Shown here piece by piece: positions 3,172-49,021 of a stretch of 64,000 nucleotides of DNA (positions within the stretch are counted from its first letter, which is position 1; each line of letters begins with the position of its first letter). A program made the translations under genes and the position numbers. Under the pieces are notes generated by a model. It did not search any database. It saw only the letters and a list, made by a program, of their open reading frames with translations, and had not been told where the DNA came from. The DNA is from a virus. Taxonomy: Duplodnaviria > Heunggongvirae > Uroviricota > Caudoviricetes. Location of the stretch: the IMG/VR virus record IMGVR_UViG_3300033146_004404, positions 137,185 to 201,184 of that record; one strand, 5' to 3'.

Positions 3172-3474
3172 TTAAACTATTTCTGATACTTTTTTAGGTG
3201 TAGGAACTTTAATAACTCTTCCAGTATAGTATCCTTCTGGCGAGTCGTTTATATCATTTATATATGTAATTACCCAATGTAGATCACCTGTACCATAAAA
3301 CAGGTTAGATATTAAGTCTGGTCTAAAATTAAAAGCTAAAGGAATTGTATAAAGAGATATGCTGTCGTCGTTTAATCTTTCCTTTAATGCTTCTGTATCT
3401 AATATTCCTTTTTGGTTATGCTGAATATCATCATTCCAAATATCTGGAAAAAATTGAAATCTTGAATATGACAC
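3172..3474 (-). CDS. Baseplate wedge gp53-like / LysM-like protein
   Basis: RPDLISNLFYGTGDLHWVITYINDI...GRVIKVP pattern; lies next to the spike gene. Confidence 0.75.
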   Translation of the reverse strand: MSYSRFQFFPDIWNDDIQHNQKGILDTEALKERLNDDSISLYTIPLAFNFRPDLISNLFYGTGDLHWVITYINDINDSPEGYYTGRVIKVPTPKKVSEIV

Positions 3475-3485
3475 GTTTTATCTCC

Positions 3486-5000
3486 TTAAAGCGTTGGCAC
3501 TATTGAATAATAATCTTCAAAGCTTGGCAACACACCAATATACATAGGATCTATTTCATTAAGAGTTACAGTAACTTCAAATGTCATTAGGTCTACTATT
3601 CCATTATTATTCTTATTTAATATAACTGGTGAGTTATCCCAGTCTTTCTTTATATCTACTTTAGAAACTACAAAGCTTCTATGATATACTTTAGTAGAAC
3701 TAGCCATTTTGTATGGATATGTTAATAAGTTATTGAAAGGCACTGTTTGTGTTACTTCTTCGCTATGATTAACTTGCGTAGTATCACCAAAAACAATTTT
3801 TACTACAGGAGGTCTATAGAAAGATCCGGCTTCTTTTGATGTTTGTGGAAATACTAATCCTCTATATGCCATCTCTATGCTCTGTATATTTCTAAGTGTA
3901 AATATTTTCATCCAACTATCTACACCAGAATTATCTCCAGTCTTAACACTTGTATCATCAGCATCTGGTGTTAATACAGTATAAGTAGTTGTTAAGTTTA
4001 CTGAAGAACCTTCTGTTTTTATATATGATTGAATGTCACCAATTCTGCTTAAAATTGACGTTGCTTCATATTTAGCAGCTCTTCCAGATTCAGATATCTT
4101 AGGATTGAACTCAAAAGGTATTGTATACTTAGAAGAAATGCCGCCTTCAGTATTTGGATTTACTGGATAGACATGTAGAGCTCCAAGGTTTGAAATCTGC
4201 CCTTTTACGTTAAGGCTTTTTGTTATCTGGTCATAGCTCATAGTATCTGCTGAGTATGGAACATTAATTAAATTAGACGATTTAAAGAAAGGACTTAGGT
4301 TAAAGAAATCTATTTCATTATCGCTTTTAATCTTTTTATCTTCTGTTATAGTTACTTCAGTATAGTTATCTTTAGTTGTGTCTTTTGATACATCAGTGAG
4401 TTTTTTAGTTTTTATCTCATTACTGATGTTTCCTATTTCAACAGAATCTTCAGCTATATTTATCTTAGAGCTTTCAACATCTCTTATTAAACTATTACTT
4501 ACGTTCGACTTGTCTGCTTTTCCATATGCATCGATTAATTTTGGAATAATAAATAATTCATTTTCTGGCTCAATGGAAGGAGACAACTCTTGCTTACCTT
4601 TGTTGTCTTGAGTTACCTTAAAGTCTGTTTTTGATTTAGATTCATATGTAGCGGATGATGGCAACCCAGGAATTTGTTTTTCTTCTGTCGTCCAAGTACT
4701 TATAGTTAAATCAGAATCAATCGGTTCTATAGGGTATTCCCTCGCTGCTCCAAAAGCTCCTAAGTTATTAATATTCGTTACTTCAAAGAGACCCTGAAGT
4801 GCATCAGTAGGATCCTCTTGAGGTTTAGCGTCTTTTCCGGCTATTTCTCCTAACAGTCCAAATTCAATTTTTTCCTCAACTAATTCCTCTATTTCAATAG
4901 CAGTATCTTCTTTTACTGTTTCTCCATGAGTAGGAGGATTTAATTCTATGTTCTCTGGATCTACTAGAGATAGATTATAGTTTATGTAATTCTTCTTCAC
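3486..5000 (-). CDS. Putative tail tube initiator / baseplate-tube junction protein
   Basis: C-terminal half IPFEFNPKISES...YRPPVVKIVFG...FEVTVTLNEI resembles tube-fold initiator proteins; located between the tape measure and gp53-like genes. Confidence 0.5.
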   Translation of the reverse strand: MKKNYINYNLSLVDPENIELNPPTHGETVKEDTAIEIEELVEEKIEFGLLGEIAGKDAKPQEDPTDALQGLFEVTNINNLGAFGAAREYPIEPIDSDLTISTWTTEEKQIPGLPSSATYESKSKTDFKVTQDNKGKQELSPSIEPENELFIIPKLIDAYGKADKSNVSNSLIRDVESSKINIAEDSVEIGNISNEIKTKKLTDVSKDTTKDNYTEVTITEDKKIKSDNEIDFFNLSPFFKSSNLINVPYSADTMSYDQITKSLNVKGQISNLGALHVYPVNPNTEGGISSKYTIPFEFNPKISESGRAAKYEATSILSRIGDIQSYIKTEGSSVNLTTTYTVLTPDADDTSVKTGDNSGVDSWMKIFTLRNIQSIEMAYRGLVFPQTSKEAGSFYRPPVVKIVFGDTTQVNHSEEVTQTVPFNNLLTYPYKMASSTKVYHRSFVVSKVDIKKDWDNSPVILNKNNNGIVDLMTFEVTVTLNEIDPMYIGVLPSFEDYYSIVPTL

Positions 5001-5042
5001 TCAATTCTCCTAATCATTTTTACTACTATTTTTATGCTCATC

Positions 5043-8000
5043 TTAGGTTCCGCTTCCATAAGCATCATAACTACTACGCTTAATTTTTTTGACAAAGTGA
5101 CTTGCTTCTGCTATCTCTGTCTGTTTCTTAACTTCTTCTGCCTGCTGAATAATGACAACTTGTTTTATTTCTTCTTTTTCAATTAATGTATCTAGCTTTT
5201 TGTTTGTCTTTTCTGCTTCTTTAAGCGCTTTCTTTTGAGCTGGACTAGTAACAACTTTTCTGGCATCTTCTGTTTTAACAAATTCTGTAGCAGTTGCTTG
5301 CATAATAAATGGCATTAACTTGGTTGTTGTAGTTTCTGTATCAGGATCCGTATTTTCTGCTGTTTGCTCTGATAAGTCTAATTGATTTGAAGTATATTCA
5401 TCCATTCCATTTAAATCTACTTTAGGAATCTCTCCAAACTCTGAGTCTTTAAATGATTTTCCTATTGTTTCAGAGGCTTCAATCATTGCATCTCCAGAAG
5501 ACTTAAATGATCCTGCCATTGCCTTCATTCCATTTATCATCGCCTGTTCTTTTGGAGTTGCTTTCTTCCCCATATCAGCAATAAACTGTCCTAGTTTAGC
5601 TATATTTTCAATCAAGAAACTTATTACTTTAAGTAAGTAACCTAATACTTTTAAGATTGGAGGAAGCGCTGCTTTCACAAGTTCTATAAAGATAGGAAGT
5701 ATTGCCTTCATTACTTCTACGAGGACTCCCATGATAGGACCAAGTAAACTTCCTACTATTTCAACAAGTGGAAGTAAAGCATTAATTAATTGATCGAATA
5801 CTGGCATTAACTGCTTTTCTATTATTGGCATCAAACGTCCTACTACTTTATCAAAAACTCCTTTAAGTTTATCCATTATTTTTCTGAATCCATCCATCTT
5901 CATCATTGCGCCGATTAACATGCCACCAATTAAAGCAATTGGCCCACCAATTTTTGATAGTCCTGCGCTAGCTAATTTTGTTGCTCCGCCTATTCCTTTG
6001 GCGAAAGTTTTTGCTCCCTTTGCGAAAGTTTTTGCAAGCCCTTTCGTCAAACTTCCTTCACCGACTGCTCTCAATGCTTTTAGCCAATTTTTAGGATTAA
6101 TTCTCTCTTTAACAACTTCTGCCCCAGCGATAAAAGAATCTCCTAGTTGCCCGATTCTTTCTTTAAGTCCAAGAACTAAGTTATCTTTTACCTGAATGGC
6201 TGCAGCTGCTAGTTTTGCACCCATAGGTTCAATAAGAACATCTAGGTCAGTTCCTGCTAAAGCTCCTAGCTGAGCTTTCTGGTTTGCATTAATTTCTTCA
6301 GTTAAGGCTTGCCATCCATCAGTTCCTTCTTCAAAACCTTGTCTCTGTGCTAATAAAATCTCTTCTGATGCAGCAAGACGATCATATTCTCTTTGAGTTA
6401 TTGCAGAAGTCGTACTTAAAATATCGTTAAGTTTTCCTTTAGATTCTTCTTGTGATTCAAGAACTTTAAGTTCTTGTTTCTTTTGATTTTCAAGATGCTC
6501 AGTTTGTGCTTTATGTAATTCAGTGTTTTCTGATCTAATTCCTCTAAGTTTCTTTCTTTCTTCATCTAACTCCATTAGCTTTTCACTGCTGATACCAGCT
6601 TCAGTTTTTGCTGCTTTTATCTCTTCTAGTCGTGCTTCAATTATTCTATTAGAACTATCAAGTTCTGATAGTGTCAATTCAGCCAGTTCTTTCTGTCCCT
6701 TTATTCTAATTAAGTCTGAGTTAGCTCCAGCTAACTCAGACTTGAGCTCAATAGCTTGCATTTTTCTTTGTTCTTTTGATAGATTCTTTAAGTAAGATTT
6801 TTCTCTTGCATGCGATCTTGTCTTAACATCCTCAAGTTTATCAAAAGCTTTTTGCTGAACTTTTCCTTGATGAGCAAGCTCTTTACTTATTAATTTTTGT
6901 TCTCTCCCTTGAGCCCAAGTGAGTTTACCTGTTCTACTTATTAAGTCAAGTTGATCAGCTCTTGTTCTTAAATCCTGTATTCTATTCTCAACTGCTTTCT
7001 TGTCATTGTCTAAAAAGTTAATTTTCATCTTAGCATCTTGTCTAGTTAGCTTAATTGCTTCCAACGTATTTTCATTTGCTCTCTCAATCCATTTACTGAT
7101 CATACTAACTGGCTTTGCTCCAGCTGAAATCTTATCTAGCCATTCCGCATTTGCCTCTGTTAATTTTTTTGCTGAAGCGTTTATATTTGTATTTGATAGA
7201 ATTTTAAAATAGTTTGCTGAAGCTTTTGTTGCAGCATAGTTGCTGCTTTCTATAATTCTGTCTTGTAAATTTGTAGTATAGTTTTTGACGGCTGCTGCCA
7301 TTATTCTAACGAACTTCTTAGAAGATTTTTGAGCACCCATCTCCATAGACTCATCCATTCCAGTATCAAGAGATTCTCTTAGTTGTTCTCCTATTTCTGT
7401 ATTTACAGAGAAGAACTTCTTTCTAAATATTTTAAACGCAACGACTGCAGCAACAATACCACCAACTATAGCAACTGCAATTCCTTTACCGCCTTTTCCT
7501 GAGAACATTCCCATGAAGTTTTTAGCGTATCCAAGTAGTTTATCAAAGTTTTTAGCTATGAATGTTGCCGCCATGTTAATTAAAGGCATTGCTTTTGAAC
7601 CAATTTGAACAGCAAGTGCTTTAAATTTTTCCATACTTGTCGAGAGTGCTTTTTGAGCTGTAGCTTGTTTTTCCTGTTCTTCTGACATCTTACCTGCACT
7701 TCCTGTCATTCCAGCGAACGTCTTTTCTAACTCTCCTGTATCCATCTCTCCCATTGCTCTTAAGTCTGTTAAACTCATTCCCATTGACTTAGCCATTTGA
7801 GAAGCAGCAATTGGATTCATATTCTTAAGCTCTGCTCCAAGATCTTTAAATCCTCCAACTAAAGCTGCAGGGTCTATATTTCCAGACATAGCATCTTCCA
7901 TTGTGACACCAAGTTTACTAAACAATAACATATTATCTTGTATAGCACCAGGATCCATTAATTTTTCTATGAAGCCTGCAGCTACTTCTGCTTTTATACC

Positions 8001-18520: not shown

Positions 18521-20485
18521 ATGGCAAAAGAAAAAGAAGTAGTAAAAGAATCTTCTGTTTTTGATAGTCTTGATGACATGATTAAAAAGCAATTCAATAA
18601 CGTAATTGACCTTTCTAAAGTGGATGGAAAAGTAAAAACTTGGTATGACACTGGAGTTACAGTGTTAAATTATGCTATGTCAAGAAATTTGAGATATGGT
18701 ATTCCTGGTGGAAGAATTACATCGTTTTCAGGATTAAGTGGTTGTATTTTTGATAATACAATTATTAAAGTTAATAGAGGTAAAAGAACTGAGTGTGGAG
18801 AGTATACAGTAAAAGAATTATATCAAAAAATGGGATATGATGAAAAATATACTGGAAGAAAATTTGATATGTCTTTACCTACGAATACATTTTCTTTTAA
18901 AAAAAGCTGTATAGGGCATAATGAAATTGTTGAAGTTATTGACTCTGGTGAAAAAGAAACTTTCATGTTAAAAACAGAGAGTGGAAAAACAATAATTGTA
19001 TCAGAAGAACATCCGTTCAAAGTTCCTGATGAAAACATAAAAGGAAGAGGAGATCCAGAAAAAGATGACTTTGTCGCTTTGAAAGATTTAGTTGTCGGGG
19101 AAACAGTAATGGTAAAGTCTTCTGCTGATCAAGAAGTTGACTTTGGAAGTAGAAAGAAAAACGGAAGAGGAATAAATGATATTCAATATCCTACGAATAC
19201 TTGGAGAAAAGAGACTAATGATGTTTTAGAGGGTTTAGCTAAAAAAGAAAATAATAAAAATCATTCTGTTAAACAAAACTTTAGAGATTTTAGACATAAT
19301 GATTTTCATTGGGAAAAAATAGTTTCTATCAATAGCGTTGGAAAAAAACACACTTATGACATACGAATGAAAAAGCCATATAGTAATTTTGTAGCTAATG
19401 ATTTTGTAGTTCACAATACAGGTAAATCACTTATTGCAGCAACTGCTATGAGAGATCCACAGATAGATATGATTATTGTTCTGGAAACAGAAGGTGGTGG
19501 TCACGCAAAAGAACTTATTGAGTTCGCAGGAGTTGATCCTAAAAAAGTAAGAATTGTAAAAGCTCATACTTTTGGTAATTATAAAATAAATAAAAAAACA
19601 AACAAAATTGATGAAGTTGCCGATTCGAAGTTTCCTGCTAAGTTGGAATCTCCTGATAATCACTTTGTTGAAGGCGCAATAAGACAAACGAAGAAAATTG
19701 TTAATGCCTTACAGTTTAATAAGAAGTTAGAAGATGCTAAAATTCTTTTAATTCTTGACTCACTTGGAAACTTGCAGTCAGTTAGAGAGTTCTCTGGAAC
19801 TGTTGATATGGGAGCAAGAGCGCAGGATGTTGGTAGATTTTTTAGAACGTTCGACACAGCATTTGAAAAGTCTAACATAGGTTTTGTTTTTACGAATAAA
19901 ATTTATGTAAACCTTGGAAATATCTACGATCCTTATAAAGAGACGGGTGGAGTAAATGCTGAATATAATCCTTCAGTTTCTTGTAGGTTTACTGAGATGG
20001 CAGCACATGCTGAAGTTTCAGATAAAGAGATGTCAGCCGAAAAAGACCGGAGAAAAACTTCTCTTGGTTCCTCTTTGAAAAGTATTAGAGGACAGATTAT
20101 AAAATCTAGGTTTGGAACAGAAAGAAGAAATTGTTGGTTCTTGCTTGACTTTGCAGTTGGGCCAGTTAAACATTCTGGATTATTCACACTACTTAAAGAT
20201 TTTGGATTAGTTTCTAAATCTGGTAGTAGATACTCTGTTAATGGATGGAGAAAAGATAATTCTTTTTATAAGAAAGACTTCATTAAATTGTTAATGGAAG
20301 ATGAAGAAGCTAATCTTGATATCTTCCAAGCTCTATTGGATGCTAAAGAAGTTAGCATGAAAGAAGAAAAAAAGAACTTGAATGTCAATGACTTAACAGA
20401 AGTTAATAACATAGACGATGAAGAAGATGATGAATACGCAGCTTCAGAAATGATAAATGCTATGGAAAATTTAGAAGAAGGATAA
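18521..20485 (+). CDS. recA: RecA/UvsX recombinase with intein in the Walker A motif
   Basis: GIPGGRITSFSGLSG|intein|TGKS, ILDSLGNL, TGG, KSRF; ATG 18521 follows GAAGG. Confidence 0.9.
   Translation: MAKEKEVVKESSVFDSLDDMIKKQFNNVIDLSKVDGKVKTWYDTGVTVLNYAMSRNLRYGIPGGRITSFSGLSGCIFDNTIIKVNRGKRTECGEYTVKELYQKMGYDEKYTGRKFDMSLPTNTFSFKKSCIGHNEIVEVIDSGEKETFMLKTESGKTIIVSEEHPFKVPDENIKGRGDPEKDDFVALKDLVVGETVMVKSSADQEVDFGSRKKNGRGINDIQYPTNTWRKETNDVLEGLAKKENNKNHSVKQNFRDFRHNDFHWEKIVSINSVGKKHTYDIRMKKPYSNFVANDFVVHNTGKSLIAATAMRDPQIDMIIVLETEGGGHAKELIEFAGVDPKKVRIVKAHTFGNYKINKKTNKIDEVADSKFPAKLESPDNHFVEGAIRQTKKIVNALQFNKKLEDAKILLILDSLGNLQSVREFSGTVDMGARAQDVGRFFRTFDTAFEKSNIGFVFTNKIYVNLGNIYDPYKETGGVNAEYNPSVSCRFTEMAAHAEVSDKEMSAEKDRRKTSLGSSLKSIRGQIIKSRFGTERRNCWFLLDFAVGPVKHSGLFTLLKDFGLVSKSGSRYSVNGWRKDNSFYKKDFIKLLMEDEEANLDIFQALLDAKEVSMKEEKKNLNVNDLTEVNNIDDEEDDEYAASEMINAMENLEEG
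18743..19417 (+). mobile_element. Cis mini-intein (225 aa) in RecA
   Basis: Starts CIFD, block B SEEHPF, ends TYDI...NFVANDFVVHN followed by T; no intact endonuclease. Confidence 0.9.
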
Positions 20486-33625: not shown

Positions 33626-33659
33626 TTACCTTTACTATTACCTTTACTATTATCTTTAC
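33626..33659 (-). promoter_or_regulatory. Three tandem putative late promoter motifs (12-nt period)
   Basis: Reverse complement reads GTAAAGATAA, GTAAAGGTAA, GTAAAGGTAA. Confidence 0.65.
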
Positions 33660-33706: not shown

Positions 33707-34996
33707 ATGGCATATTCACATCTCCACGTCCATTCCCATCTTGGGAGTCAGCTTGATGGAATCGGAACATCGGAACAATACGCTAAATTAGCAAAAGAAA
33801 TGGGACATCCATCTCTAGCAATAACAGATCACGGAAAAATGAACGGTCATTACGATCACTTCCTAGCTTGTAAAAAACATGGGATTAATCCTATATTTGG
33901 AGTTGAAGCATACGTTGAATTCGAGCTAGAACGATTTGAAGAAAAGAATGGAAAACAGAAAAGAGTTAGAAATAAGAATATGCACTTAGTCCTCCTTGCA
34001 AAGAACGAAGTCGGTTATAAAAATCTTCTTAAGCTGAACTATAAATCTATGTCTGATGAAAAACATTTCTATTACAAGAATCATATAACCATAAAAGAAC
34101 TCTTTGAAAACAAAGAAGGGATAATCGTAGGAACAGCTTGTATGGGATCTCCGTTCGCAAGACTATATAGAGACAAAAAAATAGTAGAAGCAGAGAAGTT
34201 ATTTAAACTATTTAAGAATCAATTCGGTGAAGACTTCTATGCTGAGTTACAAATAAATGAAATAGATCATTCCATTGATAACTTTGAAGAAGGACAGAAA
34301 TCTGTAAACGCATTTATTTTGAGGTTAGCTAAAGAGTATGATGTTCCAGTTGTGCTTACTGGTGACGTTCATTATTCAAAAAAGGGGATGGCAAAAATAC
34401 AAACACTAGCAATAGCAATCAGTAGAAAAGTAACTCTTGATGAACTTGATTGGGAACTTGAAGGAAAGAGTTTGTTTTATATGGACATTCCTGACTTTAA
34501 AAAATTCAATGAAGATTGGGGTTATGGATATACAAATCAGCAGATCGAAGAATGGTGTGAGAACACTCAGCTTATTGCTGATAGATGTGACTTTCAATAC
34601 AGAGAGAGGAATAGAGTTCTCCTTCCAACGTTTTCGGAAGATGATGATGCTTTATTAATAAAAGAAAGTATGAAAGGATTAGCTGAGAAATTAAAAGTTG
34701 AAGACTTTAAACATGCTCCAAAAGAATATAGAGAAAGATTAGCGAAAGAACTTGAGATCATATTAAGGAAGGGGTTTGCTTCATATATTATGATATTATG
34801 GGATGTGTTTAATTTTGCAAAAGAAGAAGATATAATGCGAGGTCCCGCTCGGGGCAGCGGTGGTGGTTCATTACTTTTGTATGCTCTTGATATAACAACA
34901 TTAGATCCAATAAAATATGAACTCATCTTTGAACGTTTCTTGTCGGATCAGAGATCCGTAGATGTTGTTTATGATTGGTTTGGTGAAATAAAATAA
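33707..34996 (+). CDS. dnaE: DNA polymerase III alpha, fragment 1 (PHP domain plus start of palm)
   Basis: HLHVHS, AITDHG, GVEAY, TGDVHY, RGSGGGSL, FERFL; ends before the DIDxD motif. Confidence 0.92.
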   Translation: MAYSHLHVHSHLGSQLDGIGTSEQYAKLAKEMGHPSLAITDHGKMNGHYDHFLACKKHGINPIFGVEAYVEFELERFEEKNGKQKRVRNKNMHLVLLAKNEVGYKNLLKLNYKSMSDEKHFYYKNHITIKELFENKEGIIVGTACMGSPFARLYRDKKIVEAEKLFKLFKNQFGEDFYAELQINEIDHSIDNFEEGQKSVNAFILRLAKEYDVPVVLTGDVHYSKKGMAKIQTLAIAISRKVTLDELDWELEGKSLFYMDIPDFKKFNEDWGYGYTNQQIEEWCENTQLIADRCDFQYRERNRVLLPTFSEDDDALLIKESMKGLAEKLKVEDFKHAPKEYRERLAKELEIILRKGFASYIMILWDVFNFAKEEDIMRGPARGSGGGSLLLYALDITTLDPIKYELIFERFLSDQRSVDVVYDWFGEIK

Positions 34997-35207: not shown

Positions 35208-36524
35208 ATGGAAGAAACAAAAGAAAAAATAAATGATATTATCAACACTTACTTAGATGGCTTTCAAGACCTTGGTTATGAAATAACGGAAGATATAAAG
35301 AAAGCTTTGTTGTTCGCAGAATTTTCAAAAAAGAATTTAATAATTTCTGGTTCAGCGGGAACTGGAAAATCAACATTTATAGAACTATTTAAGAAAAATT
35401 CAAAAAAGTCAGTCGTAACCCTAGCCCCCACTGGGGTTGCGGCTGTTAACGCAAACGGAGTAACCATACATTCGTTTTTTAAAATGGCAATAGGTATAGC
35501 AAACAAATATTCAGTTTCAAAAGAAGCTAAAGAAGTAGTTAATAAAGTCGATGTTATTATCATTGATGAAATCTCAATGGTTAGAGCAGATCTTATGGAT
35601 GCTGTAGATTCACATTTAAGAATCCTTACAGGAAACGCTGATAAGCCTTTTGGTGGAATTAAGATAGTTGCTGTTGGAGATTTATTTCAATTGCCTCCAG
35701 TAGTTCAAAGCGGAACTCCGGACTTTGCTTATATTAGAGATAACTTTTATTCAAAGTGGTTTTTTAGTGCGCCGGAGGTCGGTGAATTTAACGTAGTTGA
35801 ATTAAAGAAGATCTTCCGTCAAAGCGAAGAACAGTTCATTAATACTTTAAATAGAATTCGTGTTGGAAAGCAGTCATGGGATGATCTCAAACTAATAAAT
35901 ACAAGAGTAGTAACAGAAGAGGAGTTTGGTAAAGACGGAGAAGATTATATTTATTTAGCGTCTACTAATAAGACAGCTGATAACGTAAACTCCGAGAGGT
36001 TAAAGAAAATAAATGAACCATCGTTCTTTTTTCACTCATCTACTAAGGGCGATTACCCAAAAGGGTCTATGCCAGCTCCGGAAATAATTGAGTTAAAAAA
36101 GGGCTCTCAAGTAATGATGCTTAGAAATATAGCAGCACACAATCTTTATAACGGCCAGGTTGGAAGAGTAATTGCTTTAGGTGAATACTTTATCAAAGTT
36201 AAATTTGGGAAAGCAGATTATGTAATTAATAAAGAAATCTGGTTGAACAATGAATACTCGTTAGTTGATGGAAAAATACAACTGAAAGAACTTGGTTCAT
36301 ATACTCAGTATCCTTTAAAACTTGCTTATTCAATAACCATTCATAAAAGTCAAAGTAAAACTTATGAGAAGATTTTTATTGATTTAGGTGGCGGTGCTTT
36401 CAGTGCCGGACAGACTTATGTTGCTTTATCAAGATGCAAGACTCTTAATGGAATTGGCCTTAAGTATAAAATTGAAAAAAGAGATATAATAGTTGATAGA
36501 GTTTTAAAAGAGACTTTTCTTTGA
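35208..36524 (+). CDS. PIF1/RecD-like SF1B helicase
   Basis: GSAGTGKS, APTGVAA, IDEISM, GDLFQLPPV, TIHKSQ, YVALSR. Confidence 0.9.
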   Translation: MEETKEKINDIINTYLDGFQDLGYEITEDIKKALLFAEFSKKNLIISGSAGTGKSTFIELFKKNSKKSVVTLAPTGVAAVNANGVTIHSFFKMAIGIANKYSVSKEAKEVVNKVDVIIIDEISMVRADLMDAVDSHLRILTGNADKPFGGIKIVAVGDLFQLPPVVQSGTPDFAYIRDNFYSKWFFSAPEVGEFNVVELKKIFRQSEEQFINTLNRIRVGKQSWDDLKLINTRVVTEEEFGKDGEDYIYLASTNKTADNVNSERLKKINEPSFFFHSSTKGDYPKGSMPAPEIIELKKGSQVMMLRNIAAHNLYNGQVGRVIALGEYFIKVKFGKADYVINKEIWLNNEYSLVDGKIQLKELGSYTQYPLKLAYSITIHKSQSKTYEKIFIDLGGGAFSAGQTYVALSRCKTLNGIGLKYKIEKRDIIVDRVLKETFL

Positions 36525-36549
36525 CAGAAAAAGAATAATTGAATATAAT
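36521..36549 (+). promoter_or_regulatory. Conserved promoter (copy 7, variant)
   Basis: TTGACA-GAAAAAGAATAATTGAA-TATAAT. Confidence 0.8.
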
Positions 36550-36585: not shown

Positions 36586-37488
36586 TTGAAGACTTGGACT
36601 GAGCTTAAAGATTTTTGTGAAAAAAGCGAACGTTTTTTAGACTTAAGCGAAGAAGAAAAAAAAAGATATAAAAAGGAAATTGCTGTAGCAAAAAGATTTT
36701 ATTCCAATAAAAGAAATCTTTTTGACGAACTTCAAATAAAAAAGGATAGAATTGATAATAGATACATAATTCCTTTTTTATTAAAGCTTACTGACTGTAT
36801 TGCCAACAAAAGACCTGCTTATATTCAGGTAAAGTCAGGAGCTTCAGGAGGGATAGACATAGACACCGATTGGCAGGGTGATGGTAGAGAGAAAATCTAT
36901 AATTATCTCGTTGAAAAATATGGAATAGAAAGAGTTCTTCATGTAGGAACTTTTTCAGCTCTTGGGCCGGCATCAGCAGCAAAAGATGTTTTAAGAGCAA
37001 ATAAAATTGACTTTGGTAAATCAAATGCCTTCACTAAAGTTCTTGAAAAGCAAGAAAGTTGGGAAGAGAATCTTGAGAGAATTAAAGGAACAGATCAAGC
37101 CAACTGGAGATTCTATGAAGAGAATAAAGAAGTTCTTGAAGATGTTCCTCACTTAATTGGAAAGATAAGACAGTGTTTGCCTTGGAATCAAGATGTAGAT
37201 ATCATTGACGAATATGGAGTTAAAACAAAAAAGCTCATAAAGTTTATAGATCCAGCCCAGGATTATATTTCTTATATGGATAAAGATGGAAATAAACAAT
37301 ATACTAAAAATTATGAGGTATTCCCTTCTGGAAAGAAGAAGATATATGAAATAACTACCTCAAAAGGAAAAAAGATAAGAGCGTCTGCTAATCATAAATT
37401 TTTTTTAAGAAGTGGTGAAATTAAAAGATTAAAAGATTTAAAGAATGACGATGAAATCATCATTGATAGTAATTCCGCCTCCGTGTAA
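36586..37488 (+). CDS. dnaE: DnaE fragment 2 (catalytic DIDTD palm) fused to N-terminal half of a split intein
   Basis: GIDIDTDW..GREKIYNYLVEKYG..VLHVGTF...GKIRQ|CLPW...ASANHKF. Confidence 0.88.
   Translation: MKTWTELKDFCEKSERFLDLSEEEKKRYKKEIAVAKRFYSNKRNLFDELQIKKDRIDNRYIIPFLLKLTDCIANKRPAYIQVKSGASGGIDIDTDWQGDGREKIYNYLVEKYGIERVLHVGTFSALGPASAAKDVLRANKIDFGKSNAFTKVLEKQESWEENLERIKGTDQANWRFYEENKEVLEDVPHLIGKIRQCLPWNQDVDIIDEYGVKTKKLIKFIDPAQDYISYMDKDGNKQYTKNYEVFPSGKKKIYEITTSKGKKIRASANHKFFLRSGEIKRLKDLKNDDEIIIDSNSASV
37174..37485 (+). mobile_element. Split intein N-half (104 aa)
   Basis: Block A CLPWNQ and block B IRASANHKFF; ends at a stop with no HN. Confidence 0.88.
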
Positions 37489-37515
37489 AGGTAATGTAAA
37501 CACGGAGGTGGAATT
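37471..37515 (+). promoter_or_regulatory. RBS-sequestering hairpin with late motif in loop
   Basis: AATTCCGCCTCCGTGT pairs with ACACGGAGGTGGAATT; GTAAAGGTAA at 37485-37494. Confidence 0.8.
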
Positions 37516-37518
37516 TAT

Positions 37519-38388
37519 ATGAAGTGCTTAATATGTGGAGAAGAAGTAGAGAGAAGTAGTTTTCATTTTCATTTAAAAAAACATAATATGAAAATGAAAG
37601 AGTATTATGTAAAATTCAATTTTGACTTTACGAAAAAAGATTATTTAGAAAATGAATATTGTAAAAATGAAAAATCACTGAAACAGATAACAAAAGAATG
37701 TGAAGAGAAATATAATATTTCAAATTTAAAAAGTACTGTACTTGATTTTGCTAAAGAATTTTATATAAAAAAAAGAACTATTTCAGGTGCTGGAAAATTG
37801 TATTTTGAAAATAATGAAATTTGGAATAAAGGGTGTACGAAAAAAGATAATGCTTCTGTAGCTTTATATTCAAAAAAGAAAAAAGAGCTTTATAAAAAAG
37901 TAAGAAAAAAACTAGAAAGTTTATCTATAAGTGAATTACTAAAGTTTAATATTCAACAGAATAAAAAAATTAGAAACATACTAAGAAAAAAGCTTATAGA
38001 AAAACAAGATAATATCTGTCCTATTTGCGAAAGCAGTTTAACAAATTTAGATAAAAGATTGCAACATATCCATCATATAGACAGAGACAATTCAAATGAT
38101 ACAGAAGAAAATTTAATCGTTTTGTGTGCAAGCTGTCATACAAAATTATCTGGGCACAAACACAGACTTAAAGAACTTGATTTTATATTATCTTATGATG
38201 ACTTTGTTAATAATTTAGAACTTGTTAGATATGAAATATCTAAAATAAAAAAAAATAAAGAAGATATGATGTGTCAATTAGAAAGCGTTGATAAATTTGA
38301 TAAAAAAAAGTATTATGAAAATATAAAGGAGAATGGAAAATGCTCGATAAACATATCAAAATTAAAACTGACAGAATTTATTCAATAG
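37519..38388 (+). CDS. Free-standing HNH homing endonuclease between the split-intein halves
   Basis: CPIC...HIHHID...NDTEENLIVLCASCH; N-terminal C2H2-like finger and IWNKG motif. Confidence 0.85.
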   Translation: MKCLICGEEVERSSFHFHLKKHNMKMKEYYVKFNFDFTKKDYLENEYCKNEKSLKQITKECEEKYNISNLKSTVLDFAKEFYIKKRTISGAGKLYFENNEIWNKGCTKKDNASVALYSKKKKELYKKVRKKLESLSISELLKFNIQQNKKIRNILRKKLIEKQDNICPICESSLTNLDKRLQHIHHIDRDNSNDTEENLIVLCASCHTKLSGHKHRLKELDFILSYDDFVNNLELVRYEISKIKKNKEDMMCQLESVDKFDKKKYYENIKENGKCSINISKLKLTEFIQ

Positions 38389-38489
38389 TTGAAAAAGAAG
38401 AAGAAGAAACATATGATATTCAAAACTTTCAAGATGATTGCTTTTTAAAAGAACCAAATTTTTTTGCTGATGGTTTTCTCGTTCATAAT
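38340..38489 (+). mobile_element. Split intein C-half (50 aa)
   Basis: Blocks F/G ending VHN, +1 residue Ser. Confidence 0.88.
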
Positions 38490-38780
38490 TCTGGAAAGCA
38501 TGCTGGTGGAATCGTAATTAGTGACAAACCAATTTATAACTATATTCCTGTTGATAGAGTTCAGGGAGAAGTTGTTACAGCATTTCCAGAAAGTGGAAGC
38601 AACACTGTTCTTGATGAGATCGGTATAATAAAATATGATATTTTAGGTATATCAATCTTGGATGTTATATCAGAAGCTATAGGTATGATAGACGAAGACA
38701 TTTATTTAATTGAAGATGACGATGGAATTCAGAAAGCGGTCCCTGCATCTTACATAGATAACATAATAAAAAAACTTTGA
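38340..38780 (+). CDS. dnaE: C-terminal half of split intein fused to DnaE fragment 3
   Basis: TYDI...NFFADGFLVHN|SGKHAGGIVIS...IIKYDILG (third catalytic Asp); own SD AAGGAG. Confidence 0.88.
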   Translation: MLDKHIKIKTDRIYSIVEKEEEETYDIQNFQDDCFLKEPNFFADGFLVHNSGKHAGGIVISDKPIYNYIPVDRVQGEVVTAFPESGSNTVLDEIGIIKYDILGISILDVISEAIGMIDEDIYLIEDDDGIQKAVPASYIDNIIKKL

Positions 38781-38792
38781 GGTAATTTATTC

Positions 38793-40304
38793 GTGACTGA
38801 TTTTGCATTATTGAACTATAAAAAAAGAGAAAAAAAGAAAAAAATCATTGATGGCTTTTTATTAAATGCAAAGCAGGACGATAAAACACTCTTTAAGTGC
38901 TTGGTGTGTGGAAAAGAAACAAGTAAGACAATCTCTGCTTTGATTAAAAGAGGTATTGATTATAAAAAAATAGACGTAGAAAATAACGATACGATTTTTA
39001 TGTGTCGAAAACATTCTCAAGAAGCTATAACTGAAAAGAAATATGGAGTTAAGAATAATTTTCAAAATCCAGCTTCAATAAAAAAGATCAAGAAAAAGAG
39101 AGAAAAAAAAAGAATAGAAAGTGGAGATCCTCTCTATTTTTTAAATCAAGGTGATCTTATCGTTTTTACTTGTGAAGTATGTGGAAAGAAAACATCCGTT
39201 CAGAAAAGAAAATACACTAGTAATTTATGCAGAGAATGCAAGATAAAAAAGGCTAATAGAGAGAAAATTCTTCCTGTGATATTAAAAAGGCTTAAAGGCA
39301 ACAATATTGAATTGTTAAAACCTTATTCTAACCAGAGAGAGTTAGAAGAAAACGTTCTTTATGATTTTAAGTGCTTAATTTGCAATAATACCTTTAAGGA
39401 TCATCTTCACTCTCATATTCCAAGATGTCCTACTTGCTATCCAAAATATTCTTCAATTGGTGAAAAAGAAATAAAAGTTTTTATAGAGTCTTTAGGTTTT
39501 GATGTCATAGAAAACGACAGAAAGATTCTTAGTGGCCTAGAGTTAGATATTTATATTCCGGATAAAAAAATAGCAATAGAGTTTAATGGTCTTTATTGGC
39601 ATAGTGAGCAGAAAGGAAAAGATAAAAACTACCATTTAAACAAAACATTAAAATGTGCAGAAAAAGAAATTCAGTTAATTCACTTCTTTGAAGATGAATG
39701 GTATAATAAAAAAGAAATAGTGAAATCCATTATTGCAACAAGATTGGGGATAGTAGGTAAAAGAATTTATGCTAGAAAGTGTATTATAAAAAATGTGACA
39801 AATAAAGAGGAAAGAAGATTCTTAGAAGAAAATCATATTCAGGGATATTATCCTTCTTCTATTAAGCTAGGCTTATACTATGAAGAAGAATTAGTTTTAA
39901 TTTTAACTTTTGGAAAATCACGATTTAGTAATCACGATTTTGAGTTAATAAGATTTGCTAATAAATTAAATTCTTCTGTGGTTGGTGGATTTTCTAAGCT
40001 TTTAAAATCTTTTAGAAAAGATAATAAAGGAAGCTTAATAACCTTTTCAGAGAGAAGGCTGTTTTCAGGAAATGTTTATGAGAAGAGCGGTTTCTCGTTT
40101 TTAAAAACGACCTTACCAAATTATTACTATGTAGACGAAAACTATAATAAGAGATTTAATAGAATGAAATTTCAAAAGCATAAATTAAAGAATTTGTTAA
40201 AAGAGTACAATGAAGAATTAACAGAGAAGGAAAATATGATAGTTAATAACTATGATAGAATTTGGGACTGTGGAAATAATTCTTTTGAAATAAAAAAACT
40301 TTAA
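38793..40304 (+). CDS. Hef-like free-standing homing endonuclease (zinc fingers plus PD-(D/E)xK/Vsr-like domain)
   Basis: Several CxxC pairs; ELDIYIPDKKIAIEFNGLYWHS; C-terminal RIWDCG. Confidence 0.75.
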   Translation: MTDFALLNYKKREKKKKIIDGFLLNAKQDDKTLFKCLVCGKETSKTISALIKRGIDYKKIDVENNDTIFMCRKHSQEAITEKKYGVKNNFQNPASIKKIKKKREKKRIESGDPLYFLNQGDLIVFTCEVCGKKTSVQKRKYTSNLCRECKIKKANREKILPVILKRLKGNNIELLKPYSNQRELEENVLYDFKCLICNNTFKDHLHSHIPRCPTCYPKYSSIGEKEIKVFIESLGFDVIENDRKILSGLELDIYIPDKKIAIEFNGLYWHSEQKGKDKNYHLNKTLKCAEKEIQLIHFFEDEWYNKKEIVKSIIATRLGIVGKRIYARKCIIKNVTNKEERRFLEENHIQGYYPSSIKLGLYYEEELVLILTFGKSRFSNHDFELIRFANKLNSSVVGGFSKLLKSFRKDNKGSLITFSERRLFSGNVYEKSGFSFLKTTLPNYYYVDENYNKRFNRMKFQKHKLKNLLKEYNEELTEKENMIVNNYDRIWDCGNNSFEIKKL

Positions 40305-40315
40305 AGGAAGTAAGC

Positions 40316-40540
40316 ATGAGCAAGAAAAAGAAAACTGTCAAAGAAGAGATTGCCTCTAAAAATGAAGTAGAAGTAGAAGTGAAAGCTCCTGAAGTAGAAG
40401 TAGAAGTAGAAGTGAAAGCTCCTGAAGTAGAAGTAAAAGTGAAAGCTCCTGAAGTAGAAGTAAAAGTGAAAGCTCCTGAAGTAGAAGTGAAGCAGACGCC
40501 AAAGTCTAATTACGAAATTAGAACTGGAGTAAAGAAGTAA
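40316..40540 (+). CDS. Small protein with (EVEVKAP)-type tandem repeats
   Basis: RBS AAGGA; terminator follows. Confidence 0.6.
   Translation: MSKKKKTVKEEIASKNEVEVEVKAPEVEVEVEVKAPEVEVKVKAPEVEVKVKAPEVEVKQTPKSNYEIRTGVKK
40363..40491 (+). repeat. Coding tandem repeat GAAGTAGAAGTA(G/A)AAGTGAAAGCTCCT
   Basis: Four full units of 24-30 nt plus a partial unit. Confidence 0.85.
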
Positions 40541-40578
40541 AAAAAGAGTTGGTTTAAAAACCAACTCTTTTTTTACTT
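40535..40578. terminator. Long inverted repeat terminator abutting promoter copy 8
   Basis: AAGTA7GAGTTGGTTT-AA-AAACCAACTCT7ACTT. Confidence 0.8.
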
Positions 40579-40891: not shown

Positions 40892-41817
40892 ATGAATAAA
40901 TTAACCATTAATGAAGCAAAAAAGAGATTTAAAGAAAAGCACGGCGATAAATATAGATATTTTAATTTTTGTAGATATGAAGGAACAAGCCAAAAAATTA
41001 AAATAATATGTCCTATCCATGGAGAGTTCTTTCAGAGTGTAAAAATGCACCTTGCTGGTCAAGGCTGTAGATTATGTAGTTATGAAAAAAGAGCAAGTCA
41101 ATCAAAAAAAACAAGCCTTGTTTTTATAACTGAATCCAAAGAAGTTCATGGTGACGAATACGACTATTCAAAGGTCTTTTATTTAAGGAAAGACAAAAAG
41201 GTAAAAATAATATGTCCTATTCATGGAGTTTTTTTGCAAAGACCTGATGTTCATTTAAATGGAGCTGGATGTCCTACTTGCGGAAGAATAAAAAGTGACT
41301 TAAGTAGAAGAAAAACTACAGAAGATTTCATTAATCGTTCTGTAAAAGTACACGGTAATAAATACAACTACGCTAAAACAAAATATGTTACAGCAAAAGA
41401 AAAAGTGTTAATATGTTGTAAAAAGCACGGAGAATTTTTACAAAGACCAAATAACCACTTAAACGGAGCTGGATGTCCTGTTTGTTGTGAGAGCAGGGAG
41501 AGAAGGAAATAGAGGAAATTCTTACAGAAAGAAAAATTGCTTTTACAAGACAAAAACTTTTTAAGGGTTGTAATGGAGTAAAGAGAGCTCTGCCTTTCGA
41601 TTTCTTTTTAGAAGAGTTAAACGTTTGTATAGAATACGACAGAGTTCAGCATTATAAGCCAATAGCTTATTTTGGAGGTTCCGAAAAACTAAACAAGACC
41701 CAGTAAGCAGATAAAATAAAAAATCTTTTTTGTAAAAAAGAAAAAATAAAATTAATACGAATTCCTTATTATGAATATAAGAATATAGAGGAGTTTCTTA
41801 TGGAGAAAATAAACTAA
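40892..41817 (+). pseudogene. Disrupted homing endonuclease (three CPxHG zinc repeats plus Vsr-like nuclease)
   Basis: Frameshift near 41496; the other frame continues GEKEIEEIL...LPFDFFL..LNVCIEYDRVQHY...TQ*ADKIKNLFC...LIRIPY with in-frame TAA at 41704. Confidence 0.8.
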
Positions 41818-45028: not shown

Positions 45029-45138
45029 TTATTCTCTCCTTGTAAAGATAAAGGAGAGAATAATTATTTTCTCCCTGTAAAGATAATATAAAGGAGAGAA
45101 TAATTATTTTCTCCCTGTAAAGATAATATAAAGGAGAA
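45029..45138 (+). repeat. Three tandem promoter-in-hairpin units (35-40 nt period)
   Basis: TTATT(C/T)TCTCC-(T/C)TGTAAAGATAA(TATA)-AAGGAGAGAATAA x3. Confidence 0.85.
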
Positions 45139-46672: not shown

Positions 46673-49021
46673 ATGAGAATACTAAGAAAAATAACAAAAC
46701 GAGAATTGAAAGATCATCTGTATGAACTTAATACAGATGATCTTAGTCTTTATAAGGAAGCTAATAACCCTAATTCAATTGGAATCTTCCAATTGAATGG
46801 CGCTCTTGCTAGTGAGATTATAAAGAAAGTTAGACCTTCATGCTTCGACGAAATAAATGCTGTGTCTGCATTCGCCAGACCAGGAACCTCAAGCTTCGTA
46901 GAACAATACGTAGAAAACAGAGAAACAAAAAAATCTCCTTATTCAAATCAAGTAGCTGACTTGCTTACTGAAACAAACAGTATTTGTTTATATCAGGAAC
47001 AAGCCATGTCTATTTTTAACAAGATAGGTGGGTTCTCACTCGAAGAGTGCGACGGAATCAGAGGTCTTATGAAAAAGCTTGGAAAGGCAGATAAGAAAAA
47101 AGAAGATCTTGATAGATGGAATGTTATCATAGCTCAGTTTAATAAAGGCGCAGTTGAAAAAGGCATGTCAATCAAAGATGCTAAAATGATAGCAGCCGAC
47201 CTTTTGAAAATGAGTTCTTATAATTTTAACAAGTGTTTCTCTGGCGACATGGTTATAGATAAAGATAATTCTACTGGCTGGGTTCCTACTATAGAAGAAA
47301 TGTATCTTACAAGAAACGATAGAGAGTGGGCCAAAAATAACGGGCATGATTTTCTTCATTATAAGTATAAAACAAAGGGGTATGTCTCTGGATTTTCTTT
47401 ACAGGAAGATGGAAAGCTCTATAAGAATAAAATAAAAAATATTTATTTTCAAGGTAAAAAAGATGTTTATAGAATAACTCTTGAAAACGGAAAGATGATA
47501 GAAGTCACTGATAATCATAGGTTTCCGGTAATAATTGAAGGCGAAGTAGAATATAAAAGTATTGATTCTGGATTATCTATCAATGACTCTCTTTTATCTA
47601 ACGATGGATATGAGATAACGGATTTTAAAGGAAAATATAATTTTACAAAAAAAAATAATGAAACAAGAAAATTTAAAACTGCAGTTTACTATGGAAGTGG
47701 AGAAAAAAATACTGGTTATATAAATGGTGAGTCTATTAAATTTAAAGAGAATAGAAAAATTCTTCTAGAACAAGCTGAAAATATTTGTCCTATTTGCGGA
47801 AATAATATAAATAGAAAAGAATGCCATCATATCGATGGCAATAGATACAATAACGAACTTGAAAATCTTATAGTCCTTTGTCCTTCTTGCCATAAAAAAG
47901 AAGATTATAAAATTGGCAGAAATAGAAAAGGAGATAAGGGGAAAATTACATCTTTATCTAAGATCGTTTCCATTGAAAAGATCGGTGAAAAAAATACGTA
48001 TGATGTCGAAATGAACGCACCTTTTCATACAGTTTCTGTAAATGGAATAGTTGCTCACAATAGCCACAGTACAGCATATGCTTATATAGCGGCACAGACA
48101 CTTTACCTCTCATATTATTTCCGTAAGTATTTTTATGCTTCTGTTCTTCACTATGAAGTTGGAAGAGATAAGTACTTAATAGAGAGATTGAAAGCGGTTA
48201 AGAAACAAGGCTTTAACATTCTTCCTCCAAACATCAATAAGTCAAAAGTAGCAATCTCTCCAACTGGAGATGACAATATTGTTTTTGGCTTATTCGATAT
48301 TAAAGGAGTTGGTGAAGTTCCTGCAACTACAATAGTTTCACTACAGCCATTCGGTTCATTTGAAGATTTCTTAATAAGAATTCTTGGGCAGAAAGTGTCA
48401 GTAACGGTAATAAAAGCACTGATTGGAGTTGGAGCTTTTGATGAGATTTATAACCTTGATAGAAAAAGACTGATCGAAACTTTTGATATTTATTGGAAAA
48501 ATAAAAAGAGTACGAAAGTACCAGAAAAGCTTTTAGCTGTCTGGGAGGCCGCTCAGGAAGAAATCAGGGCAATTCCTGACATGACCGCTTCCATTGAAGA
48601 ACTTAGAGATTTAGAAAAGAAGTACTTTGGGTTCAATTTTTTCTTGAGTCCATTCAACGAAAAATTTATTGATGCTGTTGATTTAATGGTAACTAAGGGA
48701 ATGATCTATAGAAACTTTGAAGTTATTAAAACTGGATCTATGAAGGTTCCAGCAATAGTTAGCGGCATAAGAATACTTAATGACAGGAACGGAAATGAGA
48801 TGGCATTTCTTGAGCTTGAGGATATTGAAGGTGAATCAATAAGTATTCCTATCTTTCAAAGTTTCTGGAAAGTATTGAAAGCAAGATTTATTCAGGGAAA
48901 AGTTCATATGATAAATCTTTATTACAATAAAGAACAAGAGCAGATAATGTTTGGAAGTAAAAGGTTCATAAAGAAAGAAACAGAAATATCAAGACTTGTG
49001 AAACGATTAGATAATCTTTGA
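46673..49021 (+). CDS. dnaE: DnaE fragment 4 (fingers, HhH, OB) with cis intein
   Basis: GIFQL, RPG, YQEQ, YNFNK|intein|SHSTAYA, PPNINKS, GL..IKGVG, MAFLELED. Confidence 0.92.
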   Translation: MRILRKITKRELKDHLYELNTDDLSLYKEANNPNSIGIFQLNGALASEIIKKVRPSCFDEINAVSAFARPGTSSFVEQYVENRETKKSPYSNQVADLLTETNSICLYQEQAMSIFNKIGGFSLEECDGIRGLMKKLGKADKKKEDLDRWNVIIAQFNKGAVEKGMSIKDAKMIAADLLKMSSYNFNKCFSGDMVIDKDNSTGWVPTIEEMYLTRNDREWAKNNGHDFLHYKYKTKGYVSGFSLQEDGKLYKNKIKNIYFQGKKDVYRITLENGKMIEVTDNHRFPVIIEGEVEYKSIDSGLSINDSLLSNDGYEITDFKGKYNFTKKNNETRKFKTAVYYGSGEKNTGYINGESIKFKENRKILLEQAENICPICGNNINRKECHHIDGNRYNNELENLIVLCPSCHKKEDYKIGRNRKGDKGKITSLSKIVSIEKIGEKNTYDVEMNAPFHTVSVNGIVAHNSHSTAYAYIAAQTLYLSYYFRKYFYASVLHYEVGRDKYLIERLKAVKKQGFNILPPNINKSKVAISPTGDDNIVFGLFDIKGVGEVPATTIVSLQPFGSFEDFLIRILGQKVSVTVIKALIGVGAFDEIYNLDRKRLIETFDIYWKNKKSTKVPEKLLAVWEAAQEEIRAIPDMTASIEELRDLEKKYFGFNFFLSPFNEKFIDAVDLMVTKGMIYRNFEVIKTGSMKVPAIVSGIRILNDRNGNEMAFLELEDIEGESISIPIFQSFWKVLKARFIQGKVHMINLYYNKEQEQIMFGSKRFIKKETEISRLVKRLDNL
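47234..48061 (+). mobile_element. Cis intein with HNH endonuclease (276 aa)
   Basis: Starts CFSGD; TDNHRF; CPIC..HHIDGN..NNELENLIVLCPSCH; ends VAHN followed by S. Confidence 0.92.

Follow-up and report, generated by a model that had tools for sequence, protein, structure and literature searches.

The locus described here lies in a 64,000-nt stretch of phage DNA (the window), which corresponds to bases 137185-201184 of the IMG/VR record IMGVR_UViG_3300033146_004404 (Caudoviricetes), a linear record of 201,184 bp that is estimated to be about 80% complete. The window is AT-rich and contains many selfish elements. In the palm domain of its DNA polymerase III alpha subunit gene (DnaE), the coding sequence is interrupted by an intein in two halves, an N-terminal half (IntN) and a C-terminal half (IntC), between which lies a free-standing HNH endonuclease gene. 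The features of the locus are as follows.

36521..36549, + strand: sigma-70-type promoter TTGACA-17-TATAAT, 12/12 match
36586..37173, + strand: N-extein, DnaE palm (..GGIDIDTD.. to ..GKIRQ), Pfam DNA_pol3_alpha positions 103-193, E 6e-13
37174..37488, + strand: IntN, 104 aa plus TAA (37486-37488), with Cys1 (CLPW), block B ..RASANHKFF.. and a 6-aa tail SNSASV
37471..37515, + strand: RNA hairpin, arms 37471-37486 and 37500-37515, 16-bp stem, 13-nt loop; also inverted repeat I8
37485..37494, + strand: promoter-like motif GTAAAGGTAA in the stem top and loop, with a -10-like GGTAAT and the IntN stop codon within it
37519..38388, + strand: free-standing HNH endonuclease gene, 289 aa, with an N-terminal Zn-finger-like module, a WNKG motif and one HNH motif (CPIC..HHID..NL..CASCH)
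38326..38331, + strand: IntC Shine-Dalgarno sequence AAGGAG, within the HNH coding region, 8 nt before the ATG at 38340
38340..38489, + strand: IntC, 50 aa, with block F ..ETYDIQN.. and block G ..FLVHN, followed by SGKHAGG
38490..38780, + strand: C-extein, DnaE palm from Ser+1 (SGKHAGG .. KYDILG ..), Pfam DNA_pol3_alpha positions 207-260

Intein halves and HNH gene in the DnaE palm

Relatives of the locus were gathered from large protein sets and phage genome contigs, and the counts of 13 N-part representatives and 18 IntC sequences given below include the window. Two contigs carry empty alleles, L008 (ORF, open reading frame, 6467-7081) and L011 (ORF 5986-6873), which read ..HLIGKIRQSGKHAGG.. 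across the site; within ..GKIRQSGKHAGG.. of both, Q directly joins S, with zero inserted residues. Because the exteins are uninterrupted there, the insertion in the window is exact and in frame at RQ/SGKH (the slash marks an intein junction), as the initial annotation of the sequence had proposed. The N-extein is 77-78% identical to the two empty alleles and the C-extein 78-81%. The intein separates the DID from the HAGG/KYD motifs, which we take to be the catalytic motifs of the Pol III alpha palm.

All 7 IntN sequences compared have C197, S267 (block B) and H270 (the His of block B); likewise, D26 (block F), H49 and N50 never vary among the 18 IntC sequences, in which the +1 residue is S or C. 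The match of the IntN-bearing ORF to Pfam Intein_splicing (PF14890) is marginal, with 36.3 bits against a cut-off of 35.8, and among solved inteins the best match to IntN is distant (E 2e-5). Both halves are free of internal stops and frameshifts, and both have good ribosome-binding sites. Natural split inteins associate through charge complementarity; the net charge is +4 for IntN and -6 for IntC. Judged by its insertion, residues and profile, the locus is assigned to the class 1 naturally split inteins, inserted in the DnaE palm.

A contiguous allele at the same site, P0051 (about 40% identical), serves as a structural proxy for the halves of the window. Its AlphaFold model has pLDDT values of 72-91 over the intein part, and in the PDB it is matched best by the Ssp DnaB mini-intein, gp41-1 (TMt 0.86, root mean square deviation 2.2), Npu DnaB, NrdJ-1 and Npu DnaE. 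When placed on P0051, the break in the window falls between ..DEVFD and LNLNH-LKIIS.., which is the usual position of endonuclease insertion and of natural splits.

The HNH ORF matches Pfam HNH (PF01844) over aa 167-210 with 22.4 bits (cut-off 21.4), and it matches 11 PHROG HNH families. Its motif CPIC..HIHHID..NLIVLCASCH is invariant in 5 homologues. The homologues are 45-71% identical and are found on contigs of 28490, 3007 and 2948 nt alongside relatives of IntN and IntC. At its 3' end the HNH gene is overlapped by IntC for 49 nt in another frame, and the C-terminus encoded there, ..CSINISKLKL.EFIQ, is conserved in 3 homologues and recognisable in a fourth.

Proposed expression control at the HNH gene

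The hairpin upstream of the HNH gene has a minimum free energy of -29.9 kcal/mol, compared with -13.0 +/- 2.9 for shuffled sequences (z -5.74), and none of 200 shuffles folds as well. Its 5' arm is formed by the final IntN codons, AAT TCC GCC TCC GTG (N S A S V), and its 3' arm contains the HNH Shine-Dalgarno sequence GGAGGTGG, 7 nt upstream of the ATG at 37519. The initial annotation had described this layout, with an IntN of 104 aa that begins CLPW and ends at a TAA inside GTAAAGGTAA, with NSASV encoded by the 5' arm of the hairpin, and with an IntC of 50 aa (...VHN/S) that has its own Shine-Dalgarno sequence in the 3' end of the HNH gene. All of these were recovered at the coordinates listed above. 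The late timing that it had attached to the promoter-like motif is putative.

This motif is part of a larger set. Allowing at most one mismatch, GTAAAG[AG]TAA was observed 25 times against an expectation of 6.7 +/- 2.4, and 0 of 100 shuffles reach 25. Copies of GTAAAG[AG]TAA(T) lie mostly 4-30 nt upstream of ORF starts on both strands, at times in tandem, and include a -10-like GATAAT or GGTAAT. Sets of three tandem copies are located at 33626-33659 (- strand) and at 45042-45126 (+ strand), the copies of the latter set each alternating with the 22-nt palindrome GGAGAGAATAATTATTTTCTCC.

The promoter at 36521 is likely the early promoter of a transcript that would comprise the second piece of DnaE with IntN, the HNH gene, and IntC with the third piece of DnaE. 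Perfect copies of TTGACA-17-TATAAT are also present upstream of DnaE pieces 1 and 4, of the PIF1 helicase gene and of one further gene. No terminator-like site was found on the + strand between 36521 and 38780. Since IntC with piece 3 has no promoter of its own and no terminator precedes it, it must be translated from transcripts that run through the HNH gene.

A comparable design occurs at another DnaE site in L008. There, the IntN of an unrelated split intein at LEE/CD ends at a TAA within a copy of the same motif, GTAAAGATAAT, and a smaller hairpin (dG -12.1, z -3.2) covers the Shine-Dalgarno sequence and ATG of an unrelated I-HmuI-like HNH gene. The combination of a stop codon in the promoter and a hairpin is an independent parallel to the window. 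Folding of the spacer in L080, a relative in which the halves are split without an endonuclease gene, gave no significant hairpin (z -0.8), and an Rfam scan of the window found no RNA family.

Relatives, mobility and origin of the split

The collected relatives comprise 13 N-part representatives, all of which end a few residues from ..DEIIID or its equivalent, and 18 ORFs of IntC with piece 3, which have an identical Met start. On several contigs (12197, 10661, 10494, 13440 and 28490 nt) the N and C parts are found together. Besides the empty state of L008 and L011, several states were recognized. The initial annotation had proposed a search for contiguous alleles at the same site, and two kinds were found: an endonuclease-free mini-intein, P0051 (cluster of 5, 434 aa, contigs of up to 193 kb), which aligns to piece 2 with IntN (39%) and to IntC with piece 3 (47%), and P0152, a full-length DnaE whose contiguous intein contains an HNH domain in frame. 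The split state with a free HNH gene is represented by the window and at least 3 other contigs. The split state without an endonuclease is represented by L080, where the halves are separated by a 109-nt spacer; it came from a second scan of genome contigs, the first having given no match. In P0017, a C-terminal remnant of the HNH protein is in frame with IntC. P0153 (518 aa) is half-fractured, with IntN in frame with a Vsr-like (DUF559 / MTES_1575) nuclease and no IntC in the ORF; its intein begins in the palm domain at ..SLVIER/CLAKD.., which is not established as the IRQ/S site.

When the locus was compared at the nucleotide level with 50,697 phage records, no match was obtained, and tblastn of IntC with piece 3 against phages gave distant DnaE matches only, the best being Bacillus phage KLEB27-3, which has no intein at IRQ/S. 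In this cultured phage (L079, vB_BauM_KLEB27-3, OM634661.1, 217-kb), an HNH gene splits DnaE into two annotated coding sequences after ..LGLFQIELI (3378-7748). A metagenome scan returned unrelated inteins only, in a giant-virus RNA polymerase subunit and in a RecA-like protein.

The IntN clade that contains the window has a support of 100/97. Within this clade, IntN is 63-83% identical to that of the window and the adjoining extein 48-67%, with the same trend for IntC, while the DnaE alleles nearest to that of the window (77-81%) are empty. Relatives down to about 50-60% identity have the same break point, the same IntC start and an HNH gene of the same family. Because the intein is more conserved than the extein and the nearest exteins are empty, the pre-split cassette itself appears to be the mobile unit. 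As far as these sequence comparisons go, the common origin of the intein and HNH unit is younger than that of the host genes, and the unit moved between phages when it was already split. The initial annotation had held that the fracturing event is still readable in the sequence; given how far the break, the start of IntC and the HNH family extend among the relatives, the window would instead display the architecture of a mobile cassette, and the fracture did not, on this evidence, happen in this genome.

How the family originally became split is a separate question, to which the initial annotation had answered that a cassette of hairpin, promoter and HNH gene entered the endonuclease position of the intein. 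The HNH gene does lie at that canonical position, and we favour the view that a free-standing HNH cassette invaded a mini-intein. The other route would begin with a contiguous bifunctional HNH intein that broke when stops, a hairpin and a ribosome-binding site arose between IntN and the HNH domain, a later frameshift separating the HNH part from IntC. Several observations fit such a breakage: residues 102-223 of the free HNH protein are collinear with the in-frame HNH domain of P0152 from WNKG as far as the HNH motif (30% identity, E 2e-8), the core of the free HNH protein and the HNH within the other DnaE intein of the window share 48% identity across 54 aa, the IntN and HNH ORFs are in one reading frame with 10 codons between them, two of which are TAA, and the HNH tail of P0017 is in frame with IntC. 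However, a common reading frame is a 1-in-3 chance, and the endonuclease-free P0051 occupies the same site as a contiguous mini-intein. Free-standing PD-(D/E)xK endonucleases at other fractured DnaE loci also have the 33-aa Zn-finger-like module found at the N-terminus of the HNH protein (hhalign 92.5%, E 5e-7), which suggests that such genes are modular and come from a free-standing pool. In L008, moreover, an unrelated I-HmuI-like HNH cassette shows the same 5' design with the stop in the promoter. In the IntN tree, neither the sequence of these steps nor the placement of the contiguous mini-intein relative to the split forms is resolved. On balance, breakage of an in-frame HNH intein is rather unlikely.

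DnaE is present in a single copy in the record and is divided among four ORFs:

33707-34996: DnaE piece 1, PHP domain and palm start
36586-37488, + strand: DnaE piece 2, ORF of 300 aa, mid-palm and IntN
38340-38780, + strand: DnaE piece 3, IntC and palm end
46673-49021: DnaE piece 4, fingers, a contiguous HNH intein and HhH

Among the junctions that join these four ORFs, an intein is present at 1 only. Between pieces 1 and 2 lies a PIF1-like helicase gene; piece 1 ends in ..ERFLSDQRS plus 12 aa, and piece 2 begins with an 85-aa helical extension that precedes GGIDIDTD. In L011, the cleanest relative, DnaE still consists of three ORFs without an intein, and therefore the other DnaE junctions must assemble non-covalently. 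The contiguous HNH intein of piece 4 is inserted at ..SSYNFNK/C...VAHN/SHSTAY.., 3 residues off the classical cyanobacterial DnaE split site. L008 has no intein at FNK/SH; its own split intein with the I-HmuI-like HNH gene is located at ..GGFSLEE/CD... The possibility that this split intein occupies the same site as the contiguous HNH intein of the window was considered and rejected, as LEE/CD and FNK/SH are different sites. FNK/SH, LEE/CD and IRQ/S are all occupied within the phage group, which therefore has three different DnaE intein sites.

DnaE is fractured at yet another position in the jumbo phages L076 (1350-6875) and L077 (2610-7529), of 134-225 kb, with the junctions ..RPG../C ... 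VHN/CGMDK. Their IntC is 41-44% identical to that of the window, and their free-standing TnsA/Vsr-like endonuclease has its N-terminal Zn-finger module in common with the window HNH protein; in L076, two additional genes lie between the intein halves. A different type of element interrupts piece 2 in L008, where an ORF-less group I intron (6258-6443; Rfam RF00028, 65.1 bits, gathering score 50, E 2e-16) is located between ..GASGG and IDIDTD, at the catalytic aspartates. The window has no intron there. P0005 and P0006 begin MIDIDCD and MIDVDCD, respectively, which suggests that their contigs have the same group I intron.

Other selfish elements surround the locus. A genome scan of the whole record gave 6 intein-profile matches, and the other inteins of the window are a LAGLIDADG intein in a helicase, one in ORF 18500-20485, and the HNH intein in the last DnaE piece. 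Directly 3' of piece 3 is a free-standing homing-endonuclease-like ORF of 503 aa (38793-40304; phrog_3339 / phrog_559, E 1e-110 to 1e-117) with PD-(D/E)xK MTES_1575 and Mom-like domains, and a second gene of the free-standing homing-endonuclease-like type, a 206-aa Zn-ribbon ORF, is found at 40892-41512. Both genes are missing from L011. Between them are a small ORF of EVEVKAP-type tandem repeats (40316-40540) and a perfect 21-bp hairpin terminator (40535-40578).

Interpretation and comparison with known systems

The arrangement corresponds to the fractured genes described by Dassa et al. in 2009, whose occurrence in phages the initial annotation had rightly noted. They reported 26 fractured loci, three DnaE loci at different sites included; among the fractured genes of that study are gp41-1 to -9, NrdA, NrdJ, IMPDH and DnaE-1 to -3 (PMC2677866). 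The endonucleases of those loci were of the GIY-YIG or Vsr-like types only, and an HNH version was predicted (PMC2677866). Like them, the window has adjacent halves on the same strand with a free-standing endonuclease gene between them, a 5' hairpin that includes the ribosome-binding site of the endonuclease, which it sequesters in those loci, and carries a promoter element (late there, putative in the window), an endonuclease ORF that overlaps the start of the downstream half, a phage origin, and a host gene of DNA metabolism, which in that study also included DnaE (PMC2677866). The promoter element differs, being T4-type TATAAATA in those loci (PMC2677866) and GTAAAG[AG]TAA in the window.

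We therefore regard the locus as very probably a fractured gene, in which a class 1 split intein interrupts the palm of the only DnaE of the phage and a free-standing HNH gene occupies the usual endonuclease position. The reasons are the exact insertion, the conserved intein residues, the opposite charges of the halves, the contiguous allele P0051, the single DnaE, the statistics of the hairpin and motif, and the early promoter; in addition, the HNH gene co-occurs with the halves, the intein is more conserved than the extein, the design recurs in L008, and the class itself is established (PMC2677866).

Under this interpretation, the early host-type promoter at 36521 would give one transcript carrying piece 2 with IntN, the HNH gene, and IntC with piece 3. 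On the early RNA, the predicted 16-bp hairpin would hide the HNH ribosome-binding site and keep the nuclease silent. IntN would end at the TAA in the loop, and IntC with piece 3 would start from its own Shine-Dalgarno sequence within the HNH gene. Later, by analogy with the homing endonuclease genes of T4 and Aeh1, the loop motif might start an RNA near the 3' arm, so that the 5' arm is absent and the HNH protein can be translated. The basic IntN and acidic IntC would form a HINT fold and splice in trans through Cys1, Ser+1 and the His-Asn pair, as the conserved residues and the predicted fold suggest. Splicing would join ..GKIRQ to SGKHAGG.. and restore the palm. Finally, the HNH enzyme may cut empty alleles in co-infecting relatives, whereupon the whole pre-split cassette would be copied in.

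Three points weigh against this interpretation. The HNH protein of the window is without an in-frame block of about 66 aa carrying a second HNH motif (CEICG..HHLD..NL.FLC..CHGK), which is present in all four homologues P0200-P0203, and because this block is missing the enzyme may be weakened, decaying or inactive. GTAAAG[AG]TAA is a putative phage promoter, as its position and enrichment suggest, and its late timing is likewise putative. In addition, repression by the hairpin may leak, or may act as coupling, because the translated 5' arm is melted by ribosomes that are ending IntN.

The missing motif would also suit a locus in decay, in which the intein halves are non-splicing remnants and the DnaE pieces either assemble non-covalently or belong to a dead gene. 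Non-covalent assembly is evidently tolerated, since two other DnaE junctions are without an intein, even in L011, and the split form without an endonuclease in L080 could be a later stage of the homing cycle. However, every member keeps Cys1, His in block B, Asp in block F, the terminal His-Asn pair and Ser or Cys at +1 over about 50% divergence. Intact reading frames and good ribosome-binding sites on both halves also argue against decay, as does a break between the palm motifs DID and HAGG/KYD, which are taken to be catalytic; decay is accordingly improbable. An assembly or sequencing error, which would have introduced the stop and the frame change into a contiguous HNH intein, is suggested by the dependence on a single metagenomic record and by a run of 8 A (38302-38309) near the overlap of the HNH gene and IntC. 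Nevertheless, the 13 N-part ends and 18 IntC starts agree across different data sets, and independent contigs of several origins repeat the same ORF boundaries; for this reason we do not attribute the break to an assembly error. Between IntN and the HNH gene there are two stops, a 16-bp hairpin, a Shine-Dalgarno sequence and an ATG, which is more than a single-base slip, and the out-of-frame HNH C-terminus is recognisable in all four homologues mentioned above; such an error is extremely unlikely.

Several other systems resemble the fractured gene of the window in part. In the Pseudomonas jumbo phage MIJ3, an HNH-family gene likewise lies between putative intein halves of a replicative polymerase, and a mini-intein related to that of MIJ3 is present in another jumbo phage (PMC6892783). 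The host protein there is a family-B polymerase (PolB) rather than DnaE (PMC6892783). In Aeh1, the HNH homing endonuclease gene mobE also lies between the halves of an essential gene, the split nrdA (PMC2677866), but there is no intein and the halves assemble non-covalently, whereas the window has a split intein. mobE and the T4 intron endonuclease genes are translated late only, by means of a hairpin that sequesters the ribosome-binding site and a late promoter (PMC2677866). For the inteins of actinophages, the same evolutionary model is taken up in a preprint of 2025.

Among the characterised fast trans-splicing inteins, gp41-1, NrdJ-1 and IMPDH-1 have an IntN similar in length to that of the window, while the IntC of the window is longer (50 aa) and the exteins differ. 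The P0051 model predicts a HINT fold and matches gp41-1 (TMt 0.86) and NrdJ-1. The IntN of the window is distant from gp41-1, with a match in the block B region only (E 4.5e-5). Both inteins have a Cys1/Ser+1 pair; for gp41-1, Ser+1 is taken from the SSS junction (PMC7090010) and Cys1 follows from the C1A title of PDB 6riz. The initial annotation had regarded Ser+1 as a mark that sets the window intein apart, but it is not distinctive, because the native C-extein junction of gp41-1 is SSS (PMC7090010). The cyanobacterial Ssp and Npu split DnaE inteins also lie within Pol III alpha, but before CFNKSH in the fingers and not in the palm; their halves are at distant loci without an endonuclease, whereas those of the window are adjacent with an HNH gene, and the similarity of IntN to them is weak (E 0.04-0.06).

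The window is a new example of an arrangement that has been known in phages since 2009, and it is apparently intact and conserved. It is of moderate practical interest, holds little conceptual surprise and leaves current understanding unchanged. IRQ/SGKHAGG is possibly a DnaE intein site not yet catalogued. In sequence, the split family is distant from gp41-1, NrdJ-1, IMPDH-1 and Npu DnaE, and it is therefore worth considering as an additional orthogonal pair for trans-splicing that would leave a small Ser+1 scar; orthogonality to the current tool inteins is plausible from the sequences.

For the field, the small set of known natural split inteins gains a well-documented family, with 13 N-part representatives and 18 IntC sequences. 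The comparative series at one insertion site provides material for testing the gene-breaking model of Dassa et al., and the two promoter classes around the hairpin offer a clean system in which to follow the timing of a selfish nuclease by a phage. In present-day phages, IRQ/SGKHAGG is seen empty, with a mini-intein, with an in-frame HNH intein, split with a free HNH gene and split without an endonuclease, and possibly with an IntN fused to a Vsr-like nuclease (P0153). It is rather doubtful that in-frame and free-standing HNH forms directly interconvert there. If true, this would be the first site-resolved natural record of inteins gaining and shedding endonuclease domains, and it would add a divergent Cys1/Ser+1 split pair to the tool sets for ligation.

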